Shown here in pieces: positions 1-8,840 of a DNA stretch of 8,840 nucleotides (position 1 is its first letter; every line of letters begins with the position of its first letter). The DNA comes from a virus (lineage: Duplodnaviria > Heunggongvirae > Uroviricota > Caudoviricetes), in the IMG/VR virus record IMGVR_UViG_2917881069_000002, positions 1 to 8,840 of that record. The stretch is one strand, 5' to 3'. Below the pieces are notes generated by a model. That model did not search any database and was not told where the DNA came from. It was given only the letters and a program-made list of their open reading frames with translations. A program made the translations under genes and the position numbers.

Positions 1-1038
1 TTAACGCTTATCCGCTACCAGTTTGAGCGCATGTTCCAGCACGTTAATGTCAGCGCCCGCTTTATGGGCATTTTCACTTAAATACCGCCGCCACTGCCGC
101 GCACCAGGAATCCCCTGGAACAGCCCCAGCATATGCCGGGTGATATGACCGAGATACGTCCCCTGGCTGAGTTCACGCTCAATGTACGGATACATAGCTC
201 GTACCACCGCCACCGGATCGGCATCGGTATCCGAGGAACCAAATATCTCTCGATCCACTGCCGCCAGAATGCCTGGGTTTTGATACGCTTCACGCCCGAC
301 CATCACGCCATCCATATGTTGCAGGTGTGCTTTAGCCTCTTCCAGCGACTTGATACCACCGTTAATTGACATAGCCAGATGCGGGAAATCACGCTTCAGT
401 TGATAGACGCGCGGGTAATCGAGCGGCGGGATCTCACGGTTTTCTTTTGGGCTTAAACCGGAGAGCCAGGCTTTACGCGCGTGGATGATAAACATCTCGC
501 ATTCGCCTTTGCCGGAAACGGTGTCGATAAAATCACAGAGAAATTCATAGCTGTCCTGGTCGTCAATGCCAATACGCGTTTTCACCGTCACTGGAATCGA
601 CACTACATCGCGCATCGCTTTTACGCAGTCAGCCACCAGTTGCGCATTCCCCATCAGGCACGCGCCAAACATGCCGTTCTGTACCCGGTCTGACGGGCAG
701 CCGACATTCAGGTTGATCTCATCATATCCGCGCGCTTCTGCCAGCTTCGCGCACTGCGCCAGCGCCGCCGGATCGCTACCGCCCAACTGTAACGCCACCG
801 GATGCTCTTCTTCACTGTATGCCAGGTAATCACCTTTACCGTGAATAATCGCCCCTGTGGTCACCATTTCGGTATAGAGCAACGTATTACGGGAGAGCAG
901 ACGCAGGAAATAACGGCAGTGTCTGTCCGTCCAGTCGAGCATAGGAGCAATGCTAAACCGAGAATTCCAGTAAACACCAGTTTTTTCAGGCATCACGCTG
1001 GTTTGATTAATTTTTTGTGTTTCATGATTATCGTGCAT
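1..1038 (-). CDS. dusA: tRNA-dihydrouridine synthase A (DusA), complete, 345 codons
   Basis: Minus-strand ORF with TAA stop at 1-3 and ATG at 1036-1038. Translation ([44 protein letters not shown] ... [21 protein letters not shown] ... ending ALKLVADKR) is recognisably enterobacterial DusA. No strong SD before the ATG at 1038; an in-frame ATG 45 nt downstream (MPEKTG...) is an alternative start. Confidence 0.95.
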
Positions 1039-1070
1039 TTTTGAACATTTCAGGCTATTTTTCTCGCGTT

Positions 1071-1106
1071 AGGTTCCCGCACAGGTTCCCACGTTTTATG
1101 GGAACC
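1071..1106. promoter_or_regulatory. Repeat cluster in the dusA-int divergent intergenic region: direct repeat AGGTTCCC (1071-1078, 1083-1090) and inverted repeat GGTTCCC-N9-GGGAACC (1084-1106)
   Basis: Read directly from the sequence aggttcccgcacaggttcccacgttttatgggaacc, 21 bp upstream of the int ATG. No T-tract on either side, so not an intrinsic terminator. Function (operator, integrase or accessory-factor site) is inference. Confidence 0.3.
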
Positions 1107-1126
1107 CGAAATAACGAGGTCGTGTA

Positions 1127-2224
1127 ATGGCGTACTATAACATAGAGAAACGACTAAAATCCGATGGCACACCACGCTATCGCTGTAATGTGATTATCAA
1201 AGAAAAAGGGGTTATCACTTACAGGGAAAGCAAAACATTCCCTAAACATGCTCATGCCAAAACATGGGGCACACAGAAAGTGATGGAATTAGATCTACAT
1301 GGCATTCCATCATCAAATGCTGTTGACGGGCTTACAGTCCGTGACTTACTACGCAAATATTTAAATGACCCAAATGCCGGAGGTAAAGCAGGCCGTACTA
1401 AAAGATATGTGCTGGAACTACTTATGGATAGTGACATTTCTGCGATCAGACTATCTGAATTAACAGAAAATGACGTAATAGAACATTGCAGGTTGAGAAA
1501 CAACGCCGGTGCAGGTCCAGCTACTGTTAGCCACGATGTTAGTTATCTTGGCAGTGTTCTGGATGCAGCCAAACCTGTATACGGAATTAATTACACATCA
1601 AACCCAGCAAAAGCCGCTCGTCCATATCTACTTAAACTTGGTTTAATTGGTAAATCAAATCGTCGTAATCGTAGACCAGCATCTGATGAACTAGACATGC
1701 TCATTGAAGGCCTTCAACAACGATCTACTCATAAATGCTCAAAAATTCCGTTCGTTGATATCCTCAAATTTTCTGTGTGGTCCTGTATGCGAATCGGAGA
1801 AGTATGCCGGTTACGATGGGAAGATCTCGACCAGGAACAAAAATCTATACTAGTAAGAGACAGGAAAGATCCACGTAAAAAGGAAGGTAACCATATGAAA
1901 GTGGCCTTGCTTGGGGAAGCCTGGGATATCGTCCAACGACAACCCAAAAAATCTGAATTCATTTTTCCATACAACAGCACTTCTGTTACCGCAGGATTTC
2001 AGAGGGTAAGAAGCAAATTAGGTATTAAAGATCTGCGATACCATGATTTGCGTAGAGAAGGGGCAAGTCGCTTATTTGAGGCTGGTTTTAGTATTGAGGA
2101 AGTCGCCCAGGTTACAGGGCATCGTTCATTAAACGTGCTATGGCAGGTATATACCGAACTGTATCCAAAATCTTTACATAATCGTTTTGAAGAACTCCAA
2201 AGGAGCAGAAATAAGACCTCTTGA
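1127..2224 (+). CDS. int: Phage tyrosine integrase (site-specific recombinase), dusA-associated type, 365 codons
   Basis: ATG at 1127 preceded by GAGG (1116-1119, 7-nt spacer). C-terminal catalytic region carries tyrosine-recombinase signature residues: Arg in CMRIGEVCRLRWEDL, H-x-x-R in YHDLRREGASRL, His in TGHRS and Tyr in LWQVYTELY. Divergent and 88 bp from dusA; lower GC than dusA. Confidence 0.92.
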   Translation: MAYYNIEKRLKSDGTPRYRCNVIIKEKGVITYRESKTFPKHAHAKTWGTQKVMELDLHGIPSSNAVDGLTVRDLLRKYLNDPNAGGKAGRTKRYVLELLMDSDISAIRLSELTENDVIEHCRLRNNAGAGPATVSHDVSYLGSVLDAAKPVYGINYTSNPAKAARPYLLKLGLIGKSNRRNRRPASDELDMLIEGLQQRSTHKCSKIPFVDILKFSVWSCMRIGEVCRLRWEDLDQEQKSILVRDRKDPRKKEGNHMKVALLGEAWDIVQRQPKKSEFIFPYNSTSVTAGFQRVRSKLGIKDLRYHDLRREGASRLFEAGFSIEEVAQVTGHRSLNVLWQVYTELYPKSLHNRFEELQRSRNKTS

Positions 2225-2272
2225 CACTGTTTATTCATACAGTTAAAAATAATACTGTATACAAACACAGTA
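2221..2272 (+). promoter_or_regulatory. SOS-regulated promoter: -35 TTGACA (2221-2226), -10 TAAAAT (2245-2250), two LexA boxes (CTGT-N8-ACAG) at 2225-2244 and 2253-2272
   Basis: Box 1 cACTGTttattcatACAGtt; box 2 taCTGTatacaaacACAGta, which differs from the consensus TACTGTATATATATACAGTA at only three central positions. The -35 overlaps the int stop codon (TGA 2222-2224). The GAGGGA RBS at 2275-2280 and dinI ATG at 2286 follow. Confidence 0.8.
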
Positions 2273-2285
2273 TAGAGGGATTTTT

Positions 2286-2534
2286 ATGCGTATTGAGATC
2301 TGCATAGCCAAAGAGAAAATGACTAAAATGCCAAACGGTGCTGTGGATGCGTTAAAGGAAGAATTAACTCGACGCATCAGTAAGCGTTATGACGATGTAG
2401 AGGTGATCGTAAAAGCCACCAGCAACGATGGCCTTTCTGTTACGCGCACCGCCGATAAAGATTCAGCTAAAACTTTTGTTCAGGAAACTCTGAAAGATAC
2501 CTGGGAGTCTGCTGACGAGTGGTTTGTTCATTAA
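2286..2534 (+). CDS. dinI: DinI-family (DNA-damage-inducible protein I-like) protein, 82 aa, prophage-encoded
   Basis: Translation [31 protein letters not shown] ... [10 protein letters not shown] ... [17 protein letters not shown] follows the E. coli DinI pattern as I recall it (MRIE..IAK...GA.DAL..EL.RRI...LSV...QETWESADDWFV; recalled, not verified). Good RBS and tandem LexA boxes immediately upstream. Confidence 0.88.
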
Positions 2535-2600
2535 TTAATACGTAAAATCGATAACGGCTGGAAATCATTCAATACTCGCACTATCGGAAGTTCACCAGCC

Positions 2601-2641
2601 AGCCGCAGTATTCTGCCATGACAAGTTGCTGCGGCTTTTTA
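2601..2641 (+). terminator. Putative rho-independent terminator downstream of dinI, between convergent genes
   Basis: Stem 2601-2610 (agccgcagta) pairs with 2627-2636 (tgctgcggct), 16-nt loop, followed by TTTTT (2636-2640). The long loop makes it weaker than a canonical terminator. No U-tract on the minus-strand side. Confidence 0.4.
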
Positions 2642-2644
2642 TGT

Positions 2645-2932
2645 TTAACGGATAAACAGCCAGACCAGCAGACACGCCACCACCGGCACAGCAAAATCCA
2701 TCAGACTTGCCATATCCCACACGCGCGGATCAAAACCACCCCACCACGGCATATTCATACGCTTGCCATGCCCGAACATTTCAATCCAGCGATATTCTGC
2801 CTGGGTATGTTCACGCGCAATGAAGAACGTACAACCGGCTATCGCTCCGTAAGCCCAGTTCCCGGTAAAAAGACCAACCAGTACCTGCGCAGCCACAGCA
2901 CAAAGTGCATGAAGGAAAGGTGTTATATCCAT
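2645..2932 (-). CDS. Small integral membrane protein (95 aa, 2-3 predicted TM helices), function unknown; candidate moron / superinfection-exclusion-type protein
   Basis: ATG at 2930-2932 preceded by AGGAGGAG (complement of 2934-2941), 10 bp after the stop of the upstream 227-aa gene. Hydrophobic segments FLHALCAVAAQVLVGLFTG, AYGAIAGCTFFIA and LMDFAVPVVACLLVWLFI. The opposing plus-strand 158-aa ORF (2618-3094) is His/Arg/Cys-rich junk with no RBS. Confidence 0.65.
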   Translation of the reverse strand: MDITPFLHALCAVAAQVLVGLFTGNWAYGAIAGCTFFIAREHTQAEYRWIEMFGHGKRMNMPWWGGFDPRVWDMASLMDFAVPVVACLLVWLFIR

Positions 2933-2942
2933 TACTCCTCCT

Positions 2943-3626
2943 TTATCCGATATCGCTTCGGGAAGTTGATAACAGCTTTAATTCTGACTCAAGTTCATCA
3001 ACTCTTTCTGTCAGTTTCTGGATATGGTGAATCAGTGGAACAACCAGACGTTCGTACATCACACCTTCGGCAACAAGGCCATTGCTGGAAATAGCTTCCG
3101 GTGCATCATCTTCGTTAGCTGGTCGCCAGTGTACAAACTGAGGGGCAATTTCTCCTACTTCCTCGGCAATCAATCCGTAGAATCCCCAGTCACGCCTGTC
3201 ATTTTCGCATTGCGACCTGTACCACACAGGGCGCATCTTGAAAATGAGATCGGCGTGCTCTGAATCTATCGTCTCTACTGAATGTTTATAGCGGATAGAC
3301 GATGTTGACCGCAGCACAGACGAAATTGCGGGGTCAGGATTAAGATAAAGGTTTGCCGCCGCTGTAGTCGTGCCCAATCCCCACAAATAAAACGCTTCAC
3401 GACCAGTCAGCGGGTAAAAATCTCCACCATAACGACCACTTTCCAGATCGTTCACTTCCACTTTGTTTTTCAGCTTATTATCAACTTCAGTTTTTGTGTA
3501 TCTGGAGCTGATATCCTGCTTTGCACTGGTCATCTCAGTCTGAAGCGTTGATACTTTTCCGTTAATTGAGGAAATATCTCCCTTTAGCTTGGTGATATCT
3601 CCTGGAATTACTGTCGATATAGCCAT
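2943..3626 (-). CDS. Tail-fibre-like protein: N-terminal coiled-coil plus C-terminal intramolecular chaperone (Peptidase S74 / endosialidase-chaperone type) domain, 227 aa
   Basis: ATG at 3624-3626 preceded by GGGAGA (TGA-GGGAGATAA-ATG). C-terminal half carries S74-type motifs: S109-S-I-R-Y-K114 (S-x-x-R-x-K, candidate autocleavage Ser/Lys dyad), MRPVWY, GLIAEEVGEIAPQFV, and a terminal helix PLIHHIQKLTERVDELESELKLL. N-terminal ITKLKGDISSINGKVSTLQTEMTSAKQDISSRYTKTEVDNKLKNKVEVNDL is heptad-like. Confidence 0.8.
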   Translation of the reverse strand: MAISTVIPGDITKLKGDISSINGKVSTLQTEMTSAKQDISSRYTKTEVDNKLKNKVEVNDLESGRYGGDFYPLTGREAFYLWGLGTTTAAANLYLNPDPAISSVLRSTSSIRYKHSVETIDSEHADLIFKMRPVWYRSQCENDRRDWGFYGLIAEEVGEIAPQFVHWRPANEDDAPEAISSNGLVAEGVMYERLVVPLIHHIQKLTERVDELESELKLLSTSRSDIG

Positions 3627-3635
3627 TTATCTCCC

Positions 3636-3917
3636 TCACATCCAGCCACGAAGTTGATGTTCAACTACAACCGCGTATTCATCGAATAATGACGATATTT
3701 GCGTATCATTAATGATGCGCACGTTTACAAAATATCCGTCTTCCTTAACACATACCGGATCGCCATCTTCAGTAAGTTCTCCGGTTTCTTTGTACACGTT
3801 ACCTATCACGTCAATGAGAATATCATCCTGCATCGACTCGTCATCATAATAGCCGATACTCTCCATAAAGGCCGAAAAGTCGGCTCTGTCGGCAAATTTG
3901 AGTGTTAAATCTTTCAT
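3636..3917 (-). CDS. Highly acidic 93-aa protein of unknown function, translationally coupled to the side tail fibre gene
   Basis: ATG at 3915-3917 overlaps the fibre stop (ATGA) and is preceded by GGGGAGAG inside the fibre 3' end. About 28% Asp+Glu with very few basic residues; no signal peptide or TM segment. Does not resemble lambda Tfa-type assembly proteins by eye. Confidence 0.65.
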   Translation of the reverse strand: MKDLTLKFADRADFSAFMESIGYYDDESMQDDILIDVIGNVYKETGELTEDGDPVCVKEDGYFVNVRIINDTQISSLFDEYAVVVEHQLRGWM

Positions 3918-6289
3918 TTAATACTCTCCCCGATTTGCGCATCAGTTAATTCTTTATGCCATATTCTGAAATTTCTAATATGACCGAATAAGTGACGTTC
4001 ACCCGTTGAAGTTTGCCCACCAAAACGAATGCTTGTATTCTTAGTTACATATCTCCACGCGGTTTTTTTAGGAACACTAGGAGGAATATCACCATTCAAA
4101 ACAATATGAACACCATAATCTTTAGTAATTCTAAATCCAGCAACGAACTTTCTCTCTTTCGTTACCAGGTAACTATTAACGCGTCCAGCATCTGCACCAA
4201 CATCAATATAAGGGCTACCAGTATTTGCGGCAGTACCGCCACGGCAACCAAAAATAACGGCCTGGCCAGTTGGCACACCGGAAAAATCCATTATACGTGG
4301 TGCTGCATTAGGAGGAAGTTCCCATTCCCAATTTCGATGAACTTCGGCTAAAACTGTAATAGGTGCGTCATACATATTATTCTTAACAGGAATGTTAACC
4401 AAATCACTAGCGCGGGTAGCTGGTACGTCGTTAGTTATGATTAATGATGTTGCATGAGAACATTTCTCTACCTGAGCGGTTGCCGCCTTTATGTAATTTC
4501 CTGCGACCAATTCGCCGCCACTTTTAGCAAGCATTTCAGTACGAGCATAAACGCTCATATCTTCGGTGGCTTTAAATGTCGATTGGAAAAAATACCATCC
4601 ACTAGCAGGATCATAATCAACGCGACTAGACAAAACATCACTAACTAGTTTAGCGGTATCAAGATCCAACATAGCATCAGCAATAAATGTGTTTCCGTTC
4701 CCGTCATCATTTAATTTTGAAATACGATGGCGAGCGCGACAACCAGCCCCCTTAACACGAATAGATATAGTAACATATTCACCACCAACAACTGGAATCA
4801 CACGGGATGTCCCAGTAGAAATCAACGTAACTGGCCCAGTGTCGGATGATTCTTTATAAGTGAATGTTGCTTGAGTAAAACCAAATTCATCAATAGAGTT
4901 TTCACTAACAGATAAACGGTTTGTATTTCTGTTCCAGTTCGCTGGTGAGTTACTATTAATAAAGTTATTAGTCGTAGTACCTTCAATCAACAAACCATTT
5001 TTTTCGAAGCGTGGTTCGTCAATTGCAGCCTCCGTCAGTACACCAGATTTGTTAATGTAGGTTGCTTTCGATGCGCGTTTAAACTTTACAACCTTATCGC
5101 CAGGCATTGTTATTTCATCATCACCAATAACAATCTTTTTATATGATGGCGAAAAGCCCGTAATCATATCCAGTGAATCGTTAAACGGTATCCACACATC
5201 GGGAAGCGGCTGCAAAACTTGTTTATACGGCTCCGCAGCCTGGCTTGCATACTCTCTGGCTGCGTCTTCACTTGCTTTTGCAGCCGTCTGGCTTGCAGCG
5301 GATGCTTTCGCCGAGTTAGCCGCCGCAGTCTCGCTCGCCTTTGCGTTGGTTTCACTGGTTTTTGCAGCTTTTTGACTGTTGGCTGATGCAGTGGCAGAAG
5401 AAGCCGCCGCACTTGCAGAACCAGCTGCGGCACTCTCGCTTTGGGCTGCTGCATCCTGACTGTTTTTCGCCGCAGTTTCGCTGGCTTTGGCATTCGTTTC
5501 GCTGGTCTTCGCTGCCGTCTGGCTGGACTTTGCGTTAGTTTCACTCGTCTTCGCAGCTTTCTGGCTGTTAGCCGCAGCAGTTGCTGATCCAGCTGCTGAA
5601 GTCGCAGAACCGGCTGCAGCACTCTCGCTTTCGGCTGCTGCAGCCTGACTGCTTTTCGCCGCAGTTTCACTGGTTTTGGCATTCGTTTCGCTTGTTTTCG
5701 CTGCCGTCTGGCTGGACTTTGCGTTAGTTTCGCTCGTCTTTGCGGCTGTCTCGCTGTTTTTCGCATTGGTTTCTGATTTTTTGGCTGCTGTCGCGGAGTT
5801 TGCCGATGCAGTCTGTGAGGCCGCTGCCGCCTGTGCGCTGTTAGCTGCATTCGTTTCTGAGGTTTTCGCCGCGTTCTTCGATGATGCCGCTGCAGTTTCG
5901 GATTTCTTTGCCGCCGCTGCGCTCTGAGAGGCGGCTTCGGCGTTGCGTGCCGCTTCTTCCACCATTTCCTCAAAACGACGCAATGCCTCCGGCATGACGT
6001 CCTCTTCCGTCATGGCACCGAGAAAATCATTCAGCGTACCTGGTCTGGAACCTTCATAGACGGTAATGGTCCCGGCATGTGAAGGCGGAAAACCTTCAAC
6101 CAGCAGGGTGACGCTGTACTGGCCATACTCAACATCCATACTGTAACGCCCGGCTTCATCCGGATTTTCAGATGCCACCGTGTTCACCAGTACCGTGGTG
6201 CTGTTACGCTTTGCCTTCAGTTGAATAGTGCAGTTCTGTATTGGTTTTCCCGCACCATCTTTCAGCACACCTGAAATCTGTACTGCCAT
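3914..6289 (-). CDS. stf: Side tail fibre protein (lambda Stf-like N-terminal domain, Ala/Ser/Thr-rich repeat shaft, distinct C-terminal jelly-roll/LamG-like putative receptor-binding domain)
   Basis: Start taken as ATG 6287-6289 (GGAG 5 nt upstream); the track start at 6295 is a GTG inside the SD. N-terminus MAVQISGVLKDGAGKPIQNCTIQLKAKRNSTTV ... EAGRYSMDVEYGQYSV ... GFPPSHAGTITVYE matches the lambda Stf N-terminal domain as I recall it. C-terminal ~400 aa are AT-rich DNA, starting EPRFEKNGLLIEGTTTNNF and ending RFGGQTSTGERHLFGHIRNFRIWHKELTDAQIGESIK. Confidence 0.9.
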   Translation of the reverse strand: MAVQISGVLKDGAGKPIQNCTIQLKAKRNSTTVLVNTVASENPDEAGRYSMDVEYGQYSVTLLVEGFPPSHAGTITVYEGSRPGTLNDFLGAMTEEDVMPEALRRFEEMVEEAARNAEAASQSAAAAKKSETAAASSKNAAKTSETNAANSAQAAAASQTASANSATAAKKSETNAKNSETAAKTSETNAKSSQTAAKTSETNAKTSETAAKSSQAAAAESESAAAGSATSAAGSATAAANSQKAAKTSETNAKSSQTAAKTSETNAKASETAAKNSQDAAAQSESAAAGSASAAASSATASANSQKAAKTSETNAKASETAAANSAKASAASQTAAKASEDAAREYASQAAEPYKQVLQPLPDVWIPFNDSLDMITGFSPSYKKIVIGDDEITMPGDKVVKFKRASKATYINKSGVLTEAAIDEPRFEKNGLLIEGTTTNNFINSNSPANWNRNTNRLSVSENSIDEFGFTQATFTYKESSDTGPVTLISTGTSRVIPVVGGEYVTISIRVKGAGCRARHRISKLNDDGNGNTFIADAMLDLDTAKLVSDVLSSRVDYDPASGWYFFQSTFKATEDMSVYARTEMLAKSGGELVAGNYIKAATAQVEKCSHATSLIITNDVPATRASDLVNIPVKNNMYDAPITVLAEVHRNWEWELPPNAAPRIMDFSGVPTGQAVIFGCRGGTAANTGSPYIDVGADAGRVNSYLVTKERKFVAGFRITKDYGVHIVLNGDIPPSVPKKTAWRYVTKNTSIRFGGQTSTGERHLFGHIRNFRIWHKELTDAQIGESIK
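5341..5760 (-). repeat. In-frame tandem duplication, period 189 bp (63 aa), about 2.2 copies, containing 42-bp (14-aa AAKTSETNAKSSQT-like) sub-repeats, within the stf shaft
   Basis: Copy at about 5425-5556 is near-identical to 5614-5745 (offset 189 bp); unit starts at about 5341, 5530 and 5719 (partial). Encodes the repeated block AAKTSETNAK(S/A)S(Q/E)TAAK..SESAAAGSA...ANSQK. Confidence 0.75.
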
Positions 6290-6300
6290 ACTCACTCCAC

Positions 6301-6328
6301 AAATAAAAAAGGCGCCATTTCCGGCGCC
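6301..6328 (-). terminator. Rho-independent terminator between J and stf
   Basis: Minus strand reads GGCGCC-GGAAAT-GGCGCC (6-bp all-GC stem, 6-nt loop; 6328-6311) followed by TTTTTTATTT (6310-6301). It sits 22 nt after the J stop, and its T-tract abuts the stf SD. Confidence 0.6.
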
Positions 6329-6349
6329 CGTATTGGGGTTATAAATATT

Positions 6350-8107
6350 TCAACGGATACTGATACCGGAAGCAGCTTTTTTGGTCACAATCACTGTACA
6401 GTCTGTGATGTTACCTGCGCCCTGATTGCCTTTCTGGAAAATCTTAAACTCCAGAGTGACGCTACCACCACCACTCGGCATATCAATAACCGCACTGTAA
6501 CTACCGGGAATGGCTCCTTTAGTTTCTCTGGTTGCGATTAATACGCCGTTTTTGCGAACTTCAAAACCATAACCCGTGTATCGCGTACCTCCCGGGTTAT
6601 TACCGCTCCCCGGATCGTCATACGCCACACCATTAAAAATAATGGGCGGAATAATAATCTGACGGTCAAAGTTATGATCATCGTAAATGGTGACTGTAAC
6701 CGTCCCGCCTGGTGTTTCCGTATCGCCCCACGAGCCAGTTTTTTTCGGGAATGGCTTAGATACAGCTTTGACGAAGTCACCTCTGACCTGAGTTGCCTCC
6801 AGCATTCCCTTAATCGTACAGTTCTCATTTATCGTGACGTTGTTGAGCGTCCCGGAGTTCGCGTTCACGTTACCGCTGATATCCGCATTTTTCGCCGTCA
6901 GCCGCCCGTCCGGTGTCAGGGAAAATGCCGGAGGATTACCGCCGCTGGTAATGGTGGGAGCCGTCAGATACTTCAGGAACACTTCGTTCATGAATATCTG
7001 GTTGCCCTGCGCCACAAACATCGGCGTTTCATTCCCGTTTGCCGGGTCAATAAACGCGATACGGTTAGCGGCAACCAGGAACTGGCTCAGTTTGCCTTCC
7101 TCCGTATCCTCCATACTAAGGCCAAGCCCCGCGACATAATGCCTGCCGTCTTCGGTCTGCTCAATTTTGACGCCCCACATGGCATTCCATTTATCGTTGG
7201 CGTCCTTCCACTCTTTCGAAAACTCCTCCAGTTTGCTGGCGTTATCCTCCGTCAGCTCGACTTTTTCCAGCAGCTCCTTGCCGAGATGGGATTCGGTTAT
7301 CTGGCCTTTGAAAAAATCCAGGTAACCTTCCGCATCATCGCTCGCCCGACCGACAGCCTCCACGAATGTCGATTTGCCGACGGTGTTCACACTGCGAACG
7401 TAAAAATAATAATCATGGCCCGGTTTGATATTGATACTGGCGGCTATCCAGTACAGCGCCGTGCCAAGATAGCGGGCTGTGGTTTCAACCTGCCTGATAT
7501 CCGCAATCCGCTTTTCCGAGAACCAGAACTCAAACTGTACAGTCGGATCATAAACCGCAAGATGCGGCGTGGCGGTTATCTGAAAATAGCCCGGCGTCAG
7601 CTCAATCCGCGATGGCGCTGCCGGTGCGGCAATCCGGAACGATACCGACGCCGGATCGCCCTGCTGCCCCCACGCATTTACCGCCCGGACTGTCAGACTG
7701 TAATTTCCCAGAGCCAGCTGCCTGAAGCGGTATGTGGTTTCCGTCGTCCGGGCCGTGCTGACCAGCCGCTCACTGCCGTCATCCGCTGCCACGGTCAGGC
7801 GAAGCATAAAGCTCACGCCCTTCACCACCTTCGGCGTATCCCAGCGCGCCAGCACCTGGTATTCCCCGCTGTCTGCGGTGACTTCTGCGGTCAGGTGTTG
7901 CACTGCTGGCGGAGTGACACCATTCACCGTGCCGCTCTGGTCGCCGTCAAAGTGCGCCCCGTTATCCACGATGGCTTCTTTCTCCGGCACATGCTGCACG
8001 GCGGTGATGGCATACGTACCGTCATCGTTCTCACGGATACTCACGCAGCGGAACAGGCGCTGGCGCAGCGTCGGCAGCTTCAGCCCCCACCACGCTGTAT
8101 TCTGCAA
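6350..8107 (-). CDS. J: Host-specificity protein J (central tail fibre / tail tip), C-terminal 585-codon segment; its upstream end is a frameshift point, not a true start
   Basis: Long minus-strand ORF ending ...[13 protein letters not shown] with TGA at 6350-6352. Translation from [41 protein letters not shown] onward reads as a lambda gpJ-family protein. The track M at 8107 is a TTG; the real continuation is in the overlapping upstream frame. Confidence 0.85.
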
Positions 8108-8840
8108 CGCCGTCAGGAACCCGTCTCACTTTCACCTTCACGCCGTCGGTGACGGACTGGACCTCCACGCTGACCGGATTCCCCTGTCCGTCAACCAGGC
8201 TTATCAGCGTGGTGCCGGAGGATGGCAGCGTGATTTCACGGTCGAGCGTCAGTGTCCGCGTCTGGCTGTTCACCGCCAGCACGCGCCCGCCGATGCTGAT
8301 ACCCGCATAGTCATCATCACAGATTTCAATGACATCGCCCGGTACATGGCGAAGCCCTTCTGCACCCACGCTGAAGTCCACGGTCTGCGTTTCCAGCAGC
8401 TCCGTTTTAATCAGCCACAGCCCGGCGCGGTGTGCCTGCCCCCGGCTGGTACAGCCAAAGGCATCCATCTTCGTGACGTTACGACCGTAACGGAGAATGG
8501 CCTGCGTATCTTCAACAAGCTCTGTCGCCGTCTCCCAGCCGTTATTCGGGTCAATCCAGTTCACCTCAACGGCATTATGGCGGTCCTTCAGGGCGCTGAA
8601 GCTGTAGCGGAACGGCGCGCCATCATCCGGCATCACCACATTACTGCGGTTATAGGTCCACACCTTATCCGACGGTCGGTCCTGCACGAACGTCAGCGTC
8701 TGCCCGTTCCATACCGGCATACAGCGCATCGCCGAGCAGAAATCACTGAGAACATCCCACGCCTTACGCTGTGTGGTCAGGTAGGCATTACGAGGTGATG
8801 CGCGGCTCCGTGCCACCAAAGCCATCCGGCACCGACTGGT
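8031..8840 (-). CDS. J: Host-specificity protein J, N-proximal segment (5' end beyond the window), terminated by an apparent frameshift
   Basis: Frame is open to the window edge (codons TSRCR precede the track's ATG at 8823-8825). Translation ...[72 protein letters not shown]...[17 protein letters not shown] is J-like. It then degenerates to [19 protein letters not shown] and stops at 8031-8033 while the J-like reading continues in the other frame. Confidence 0.85.

Follow-up and report, generated by a model that had tools for sequence, protein, structure and literature searches.

A lambda-like side tail fiber gene whose sequence points to an exchanged, AT-rich head of predicted lectin fold

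Is the distal part of a lambda-like side tail fiber gene a receptor-binding cassette taken up from elsewhere, and, if so, where does it begin and what might it do? We pursued this question in a stretch of 8,840 nucleotides (nt), positions 1 to 8,840 of IMG/VR virus record IMGVR_UViG_2917881069_000002 (hereafter, the window), which covers the left end of a lambda-like prophage integrated at dusA. Here, an Stf-like side tail fiber gene lies on the minus strand at 3914-6289 when started at an ATG (791 amino acids, aa), or up to 6295 when started at an in-frame GTG (793 aa), with its stop codon at 3914-3916. A prior reading of the letters alone (the original prediction) held that this gene switches abruptly, near 5160-5230, from GC-rich alanine-codon repeats to AT-rich sequence encoding a foreign, horizontally acquired domain of roughly 400 aa with a LamG/ConA-like ending. 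Our comparisons indicate that the gene is indeed mosaic, with an exchanged AT-rich head placed on a lambda-like N-terminal part. Residue numbers below are counted from the GTG at 6295, and 2 should be subtracted for the ATG at 6289. The latter is the likelier start, since the lambda Stf chain in PDB 9e7m starts at the corresponding position and since the 791-aa form is on record: an exact-sequence look-up recovered an identical 791-aa fiber from contig PDIG01000015.1 (assembly GCA_004745185.1) and returned no record for the 793-aa form.

The composition of the gene was not uniform. In 200-nt windows, GC content was 0.54-0.60 over 5201-6000 versus 0.37-0.44 over 3901-5200, and a single change-point fit placed the switch in GC at 5228 and that in GC at third codon positions (GC3) at 5150; the log-likelihood ratio was 20.9, whereas 500 shuffles averaged 2.4 and reached at most 7.8. 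The predicted abrupt switch was thus recovered, and its position held for composition. By segment, GC3 was 0.52 in aa 1-104, 0.48 in the shaft (aa 105-354), 0.40 in aa 355-435 and 0.27 in aa 436-793 (aa 1-354 versus aa 436-793, chi-square p = 8e-10), and synonymous codon choice changed along the gene, for example from CTG to TTG/TTA and from GTG to GTT. The head had the lowest GC3 among the gene segments measured in the window, with values of ~0.43 again in the genes downstream. GC3 was lowered (0.33-0.37) in every related head from five other phages and prophages as well, so that the head cassette looks like an allele drawn from a lower-GC pool common to coliphages, and not like the contribution of an exotic donor.

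The genetic junction fell elsewhere. Against E. coli SF-468 and phage Tritos, the gene was 90-100% identical up to gene nt ~1260, then ~50% identical, and recovered only in its last 60-100 nt. The N-terminal 1260-1316 nt were 93-100% identical to those of SF-468, Tritos and others, while the heads of these same relatives shared only ~42-45% protein identity and ~50% identity in DNA with that of the window. Likewise, E. coli 806883-9-2019, where the same prophage is also integrated at this dusA site, was 96% identical over window positions 1-3988 and 93% identical over 4980-6306, with no blastn match to the window between 3988 and 4980. In all three comparisons (SF-468, Tritos and E. coli 806883) identity broke exactly at 4980, which is the last codon of EPRFEKNGLLIEG (aa 427-439, 4979-5017), while the other break (3988-4030) fell at the start of LFGHIRNFRIW; LFGHIRNFRIWHKELTDAQI is at aa 769-788 (3932-3991). 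Both motifs had been quoted in the original prediction as the beginning and the ending of the acquired domain. As the breaks fall at the two of them, they are the conserved flanks of a replaceable cassette of 991 nt (aa 440-768, 3989-4979, minus strand, GC3 ~0.27) that has been swapped between otherwise near-identical prophages. The domain from EPRFE to the end of the protein comprises about 365 aa, shorter than had been proposed.

The two halves of the protein also had different nearest relatives, as had been anticipated. Close matches in the phage collection were confined to the first 894-1316 nt of the gene, at 93-97% identity, and no record in that collection covered 80% of it; the C-terminal 428 aa found their best phage match, at 59.5% protein identity, in the T1-like Warwickvirus SLUR29. 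A second, longer unit of exchange was seen in an E. coli prophage in GCA_049878535.1, which shared a neck-plus-head tract (3977-5278, minus strand) with the window at 99.6% identity (5 mismatches in 1302 nt), with flanks differing at 5-19 positions per 100 nt in the mismatch map. A tract this similar within flanks this divergent indicates a recent exchange in which the 1.3 kb of neck and head were apparently transferred together. Its upstream end, at 5279, was within ~50 nt of the compositional switch and is the only junction close to the location originally proposed. Horizontal acquisition of a cassette is therefore well supported by the breakpoints and the 99.6% tract, but the word foreign does not fit if it means an exotic donor, because the head appears to be an allele of a shared coliphage pool. 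The allele itself is rare. At the megablast level the head cassette was absent from 5,426 complete E. coli genomes and 50,697 phage records, and near-identical heads (98-99%) were found only in GCA_049878535.1 and in Escherichia sp. E1V33, in which the whole gene was 96.5% identical. Across 44 family members, column entropy was high at aa 454-603 and aa 679-753, with conserved flanks and a conserved inter-domain core (aa 604-663).

What does the exchanged part encode? The predicted fold of the head is a jelly-roll beta-sandwich. A first AlphaFold2 model (aa 355-793, 33 sequences) was confident for domain 1 alone, with a predicted local distance difference test score (pLDDT) of 40-63 in the last domain. 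A second model (aa 424-793), built from a more diverse alignment of 44 rows, had a mean pLDDT of 79.4 and a predicted template modeling score (pTM) of 0.58, and contained two beta-sandwich domains joined near aa 625-633; given this pTM, their mutual orientation is uncertain. Domain 1 (aa 436-629, 4409-4990, minus strand; pLDDT 85-94) is a beta-sandwich resembling the head spike fiber of gene transfer agents (GTAs) and CBM4-like modules. It matched the NCBIfam model NF048003, 'phage head spike fiber domain' (GTA_spike_fiber), with 57.1 bits against a cutoff of 36, and its sequence profile matched Rcc01080 of the Rhodobacter capsulatus GTA (RcGTA; PDB 6tb9 chain F3) at E = 1.5e-15 and a phage 'tail fiber protein gp17' (chain 9occ_C) at E = 1.1e-8, while one family member matched Pfam CBM_4_9 (E = 6.5e-5). 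On the basis of these profiles, domain 1 is homologous to a capsule-binding GTA head spike fiber. Domain 2, at about aa 633-790 (3926-4399, minus strand), is a predicted LamG/ConA-like beta-sandwich that ends in LFGHIRNFRIWHKELTDAQI. None of the three observations that the original prediction had named as contrary to it (uniform composition, the same relatives for both halves, no lectin-like fold) was made.

In the library searched, the head matched 364 clusters at the 50% identity level (E <= 1e-3), and full-length matches were always C-terminal, on proteins of 370-1481 aa. Members of the head family were located at the C-terminus of lateral fibers in T1-like, T5-like, Nonagvirus, lambdoid and rV5-like phages. 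Between shaft and head is a conserved neck (aa 355-439, 4980-5233, minus strand), with the pattern PLPDVWIPFNDSLDM...FKRAS.ATYINKSG...DEPRFE..GLLIEG, which constitutes the 5′ flank of the variable cassette. It was almost invariant, with dozens of fixed columns over 33 homologues that have differing N-termini, and was found in lambdoid, T1-like, T5-like and Nonagvirus fibers and, in shortened form, in those of rV5-like phages; its 72 strongly conserved residues (aa 355-426) separate the end of the shaft from EPRFE. The fiber as a whole matched phrog_1419 'tail protein' from end to end (E = 0, 1264.8 bits, residues 3-792 against profile positions 1-793 of 793), and this architecture has therefore already been catalogued.

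The remaining two modules of the fiber are of lambda type. The N-terminal virion-attachment domain (5984-6289, minus strand) matched PF08400 phage_tail_N at aa 3-133 with 224.1 bits against a Pfam cutoff of 26.6, as well as a 94-aa lambda tail fiber chain (PDB 9e7m/9mgh, E = 8.8e-49). The tip protein J ends at 6350, 60 nt upstream of the fiber gene, so that both features of a lambda-type Stf, PF08400 and a position directly downstream of J, were present. Next comes an Ala/Ser/Thr-rich, repetitive shaft (aa 105-354, 5234-5983, minus strand, GC 0.565) with an alanine fraction of 0.28-0.45 per 40-codon window. The alanine-rich repeats that had been proposed are real: a tandem repeat of 189 nt (63 aa) was detected with TRF at 5321-5758, in 2.3 copies at 84% identity, with nested periods of 42 and 21 nt. 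In the related fiber from GCA_049878535.1 (686 aa versus 791 aa) ~315 nt of the shaft are missing, from which it appears that shaft length varies by repeat units. The window's copy of the gene is a single intact open reading frame (ORF). Homologues in two complete E. coli genomes (L001, E. coli 806883-9-2019, at 6935-9283, and L002, at 4402-6774) are split by their annotation into three or four pieces, among them a pseudogene, pointing to frameshifts or stops in the Ala-rich shaft of those two genomes.

Downstream, the fiber gene is followed by a set of small genes on the same strand. The first (3636-3917) encodes a 93-aa protein of phrog_1361 (1.8e-45), and its start overlaps the fiber stop codon. 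A gene of this family, encoding ~92 aa, came next after every head-bearing fiber examined, mostly overlapping the stop codon, with homologues behind the fiber in Tritos, SLUR29, PhiR55_1, IrisVonRoten, FFH1, JenP2 and Lambda_ev203. The 93-aa protein had no Pfam, NCBIfam, PADLOC or PDB match, and it may be an adaptor or assembly factor. In most cases the next gene encodes a second fiber with a C-terminal S74 domain and an invariant MAxSTVIPxDITxLK N-terminus; in Lambda_ev203, the head and the 92-aa protein were retained without this distal fiber. The window's version (2943-3626, minus strand) is a short fiber of 227 aa that opens with the conserved peptide MAISTVIPGDITKLK, continues as a coiled coil and carries, toward its C-terminus, a Peptidase_S74 intramolecular chaperone domain (PF13884, aa 109-165, 26.9 bits against a cutoff of 22), and that also matched the C-terminus of phrog_3299. 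Residues M1, T5, V6, I7, P8, D10, I11, L14 and K15 of this fiber were invariant in lambdoid, T1-like and T5-like phages, as were S109 and K114 of the S74 domain in the distal-fiber alignment, which we take to be the S74 catalytic dyad. Cleavage at the conserved Ser109 is predicted to leave a fiber of ~108 aa.

The order of head-bearing fiber, ~92-aa protein and S74 fiber was seen in the window, in the lambdoid Tritos and PhiR55_1, the T1-like SLUR29, the T5-like IrisVonRoten and FFH1, and the Nonagvirus JenP2, and it is that of the branched lateral fiber module of the IrisVonRoten Gp22-Gp23-Gp24 type. In at least five coliphage groups, neck, head and small partner protein are thus found together. 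In lambdoid relatives the module is closed by a 95-aa hydrophobic protein of phrog_1443 (2645-2932, minus strand, 7e-58), for which we found no PADLOC, Pfam or NCBIfam match and which was syntenic in Tritos, PhiR55_1, Lambda_ev203 and GCA_049878535.1.

Taken as a whole, these data are best explained, in our view with fair probability, by a four-module lambda-like side fiber that carries an exchangeable glycan-binding lectin head. In such a fiber, the lambda-Stf-type N-terminal domain provides the anchor to the tail tip, followed by the Ala-rich shaft, with a length set by repeat units, the neck that is conserved across phage families and, at the end, the two-domain lectin-fold head, comprising the GTA head-spike-fiber/CBM4-like domain 1 and the LamG-like domain 2. 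The head, at times with the neck, is an allelic cassette swapped by homologous recombination in conserved flanks: DEPRFE..GLLIEG precedes it, and LFGH(I/V)RNFRIW together with the next gene follows it. The variable head surfaces would bind surface polysaccharide, be it O-antigen, capsule or lipopolysaccharide (LPS) core, giving reversible primary adsorption, with J binding the terminal receptor. Variability in aa 454-603 and aa 679-753 between conserved flanks is what would be expected of a diversifying binding surface, and the head probably binds host surface sugars.

A branch point would probably be formed by the neck and the 93-aa protein together with the invariant peptide at the N-terminus of the 227-aa S74 fiber, such that the fiber would bear both the lectin head and a short distal fiber. 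Because Gp22 of IrisVonRoten, the predicted carrier of a distal fiber, is homologous to the window fiber, we infer that the latter is a lectin-headed proximal side fiber, and that the distal fiber after it is very short. Docking of that distal fiber would more probably take place on the neck and/or the 93-aa protein than on the head, since neither its N-terminal peptide nor the neck varies, in contrast to the hypervariable head. A further step, which we propose only tentatively and consider rather doubtful, is that the neck (PLPDVWIPFNDSLDM...), the adjacent phrog_1361 protein and the MAxSTVIPxDITxLK N-terminus constitute a universal 'socket and plug'. If this were true, lambdoid, T1-like, T5-like and Nonagvirus phages (and perhaps rV5-like phages) could pair any lectin head with any S74 fiber, the 93-aa protein would be the adaptor or assembly factor, and the head cassette and the distal fiber would be two independently swappable host-range modules.

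Several points weigh against a glycan-binding head that sets host range. The papers found reported no experimental receptor for any member of the head family, and glycan binding is extrapolated from a GTA protein of 20-25% identity together with the fold class. The lectin-type ending that had been proposed is supported by the predicted jelly-roll and falls short as a family assignment: Laminin_G_3 (PF13385) matched aa 716-788 (profile positions 82-150 of 151) with 20.4-21.2 bits, under the Pfam cutoff of 27.6, and similarly sub-threshold matches occurred in 23 of 33 and 8 of 9 homologues (best E = 9.1e-6). Model confidence for domain 2 was moderate only, and the arrangement of the domains is uncertain. 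Moreover, ConA-like sandwiches elsewhere are also purely structural or protein-binding modules, the downstream S74 fiber may share or dominate receptor recognition and host range, and the solved structure closest to the head is gp46 of phage Pa193, a baseplate wedge protein.

That gp46 carries a tail-fiber attachment loop is one of the observations behind a rival explanation, that the head is chiefly a structural platform on which the 93-aa protein and the distal S74 fiber dock and branch, with host range being determined by the distal fiber and J. It would also account for the retention of the fiber, 93-aa protein and S74 fiber as a module across phage families, and it agrees with the published IrisVonRoten model, in which the distal fiber attaches to the homologous proximal fiber. 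However, the N-terminal peptide of the distal fiber is invariant, whereas heads are only ~40-55% identical between alleles; E. coli 806883 has a different head yet downstream genes that are 96% identical, and Lambda_ev203 has a head and a 92-aa protein with no distal fiber to be docked. A purely structural role fits such hypervariability poorly, and we consider this explanation unlikely. Lower still in probability is the idea that the head is an enzyme that breaks down O-antigen or capsule in the manner of a tailspike, as a polysaccharide lyase or glycoside hydrolase of jelly-roll fold. Its higher-scoring matches were to non-catalytic binding modules, and no enzyme family was matched in Pfam or NCBIfam. 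Direct inspection showed that the GH16 motif ExDxxE is absent from the head sequence, and the invariant residues are in the inter-domain core in common with the GTA spike fiber, not in a variable cleft.

The remaining rival dispenses with exchange altogether and would have the gene evolve as a unit, its compositional switch being a mere by-product of amino-acid content through the GCN codons of alanine. Amino-acid content does contribute, since GC at second codon positions is 0.68 in the shaft versus 0.46 in the head, and alanine therefore accounts for part of the raw GC contrast; the somewhat lowered GC3 of all family heads is, in part, a family trait as well. Yet GC3 also halves, from 0.48-0.52 to 0.27, so the shift is not merely an alanine effect, and the change point lies far beyond that of shuffled sequences. 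Together with discrete breakpoints and a nearly identical tract between divergent flanks, this leaves the by-product explanation with hardly any probability.

The setting of the module is that of a dusA prophage. The dusA gene (1-1038, minus strand) is touched at its 5′ end by the prophage end and is followed on the plus strand by a tyrosine integrase gene (1127-2224) and a DinI-like gene (2286-2534), placing the fiber module beside the integrase and not at the far prophage end. Beyond pspG, downstream, the source contig is unlike E. coli 806883-9-2019. On the other side of the fiber, the C-terminal part of J (minus strand) occupies the window from 6350 on and contains Ig_J, Phage_Tail_Tip and Ig_GpJ_C domains. 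The C-terminal, receptor-binding end of J (6350-7265) is also mosaic, being 96.8% identical to that of E. coli SF-468 and only 80-81% identical to, or unmatched in, E. coli 806883 and PhiR55_1, both of which are 93-94% identical further upstream in J. In the interval between J and the fiber (6290-6349), the lom gene is absent from the window, as from SF-468 and Tritos, while an Ail/Lom gene is located there in E. coli 806883 and PhiR55_1. Finally, long alternative-frame or antisense ORFs (269-492 aa) run over the shaft and J (5164-5973 on the minus strand in another frame, and 6674-8152 and 7734-8798 on the plus strand). Their translations are of low complexity and rich in Arg, Pro and Ala, which suggests that they are by-products of GC-rich coding sequence and not genes.

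How far does this locus go beyond earlier work? Tail-fiber mosaicism, the head family (PHROG 1419, NF048003 and the BASEL collection paper) and its likely role are already known, and the literature searched contained no direct characterization of this head in lambdoid phages beyond the BASEL description. The case made by the original prediction is thus correct but ordinary, because the head family is already widespread in coliphages; the window's head is a new allele within a catalogued family, and its history is a textbook instance of modular tail-fiber exchange. Added here are the exact cassette boundaries, the recent 1.3-kb transfer, the two-domain fold and the co-travel of neck, head and partner, so that one lectin-head family and a small partner protein are now seen to be common to at least five coliphage groups. 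Side-fiber heads decide which glycans a temperate phage can hold, and hence affect the strains to which a prophage spreads. The boundaries are resolved to the base and lie in conserved sequence, with one edge at 4980 or 5279 and the other at 3977-3989; information of this kind is needed for building chimeric lambda-type fibers that retarget phages or delivery particles.

The fibers of PHROG 1419 are among the closest known systems. Tritos, 2G7b, HannyBb, the PhiR-series and prophages such as SF-468 have the full-length architecture and the downstream genes as in the window. They match its N-terminus, shaft and neck at 93-100% DNA identity up to 4980, and then differ in bearing another head allele (~42-45% protein identity), with a GC3 of 0.36-0.37 versus 0.27. 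Ur-lambda Stf resembles the window fiber in its N-terminal attachment domain, its place directly after J and its accessory side-fiber role. The C-terminus of Ur-lambda Stf is related to T4 gp37 and requires the Tfa chaperone. Unlike Ur-lambda Stf, the window fiber has a lectin-fold head at its C-terminus and is followed by the 93-aa protein and the S74 fiber; no Tfa or gp37-type family was present among its Pfam, PHROGs and NCBIfam matches, and its C-terminus is not of the Ur-lambda kind. Gifsy-1 Stf, which binds LPS core Gal II, is described as an Ur-lambda Stf orthologue (50.65% identical) and was not used as functional support. Gene 57 of phage U136B (2373 nt, with mutations affecting adsorption) was set aside as only a possible family member, and the lateral fiber described in a preprint on an E. 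coli HS phage bears a T5 pb1-like tip, not this head.

Other known systems share individual parts. Rcc01080 (GhsB; NF048003, PDB 6tb9) has the motifs PRF(D/E)...LL(I/L)E..TN and Q.E.G...SS.I.T....TRA.D in common with head domain 1, and likewise attaches by its N-terminus and leaves its beta-rich part free; the fluorescently tagged protein bound capsulated cells better than cells without a capsule (PMC10218006). It differs in that it is located on the capsid vertices of the Rhodobacter capsulatus GTA, not the tail, in its length (325 aa), in having neither a shaft nor such a neck, and in its low identity to the head, with a match that ends before the LamG-like domain 2. The gp46 proteins of Pseudomonas phages Pa193 and E217 (PDB 9b45, 8env) are myovirus baseplate wedge 2 proteins, present in one copy per wedge, with N-terminal wedge and fiber-attachment parts, and, unlike the window head, they are not at the end of a fiber. 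The branched LtfA/LtfB fibers of DT57C offer an analogy only, as their arrangement differs and LtfA bears its own S74 domain.

A further parallel is IrisVonRoten (Bas32), a T5-like phage whose distal, T-shaped fiber is predicted to attach to the proximal fiber Gp22, and in which a galectin-like domain protruding from the C-terminus of Gp22 may be an additional receptor-binding domain (Humolli et al. 2025, PMC11990801). Gp22 has the same neck and two-domain head as the window fiber, with 41% identity over 366 aa, and the phage likewise encodes the head fiber, a 92-aa protein and an S74 distal fiber with the same N-terminal peptide (Gp22, Gp23 and Gp24). The two systems differ in the N-terminus of the proximal fiber, which is of T5 Ltf type in IrisVonRoten versus lambda Stf type (PF08400) in the window, and in the distal fiber, which is T-shaped, with 574 aa and two receptor-binding domains, in IrisVonRoten versus only 227 aa in the window. 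They also differ in lifestyle, IrisVonRoten being a virulent phage and the window part of a dusA prophage.

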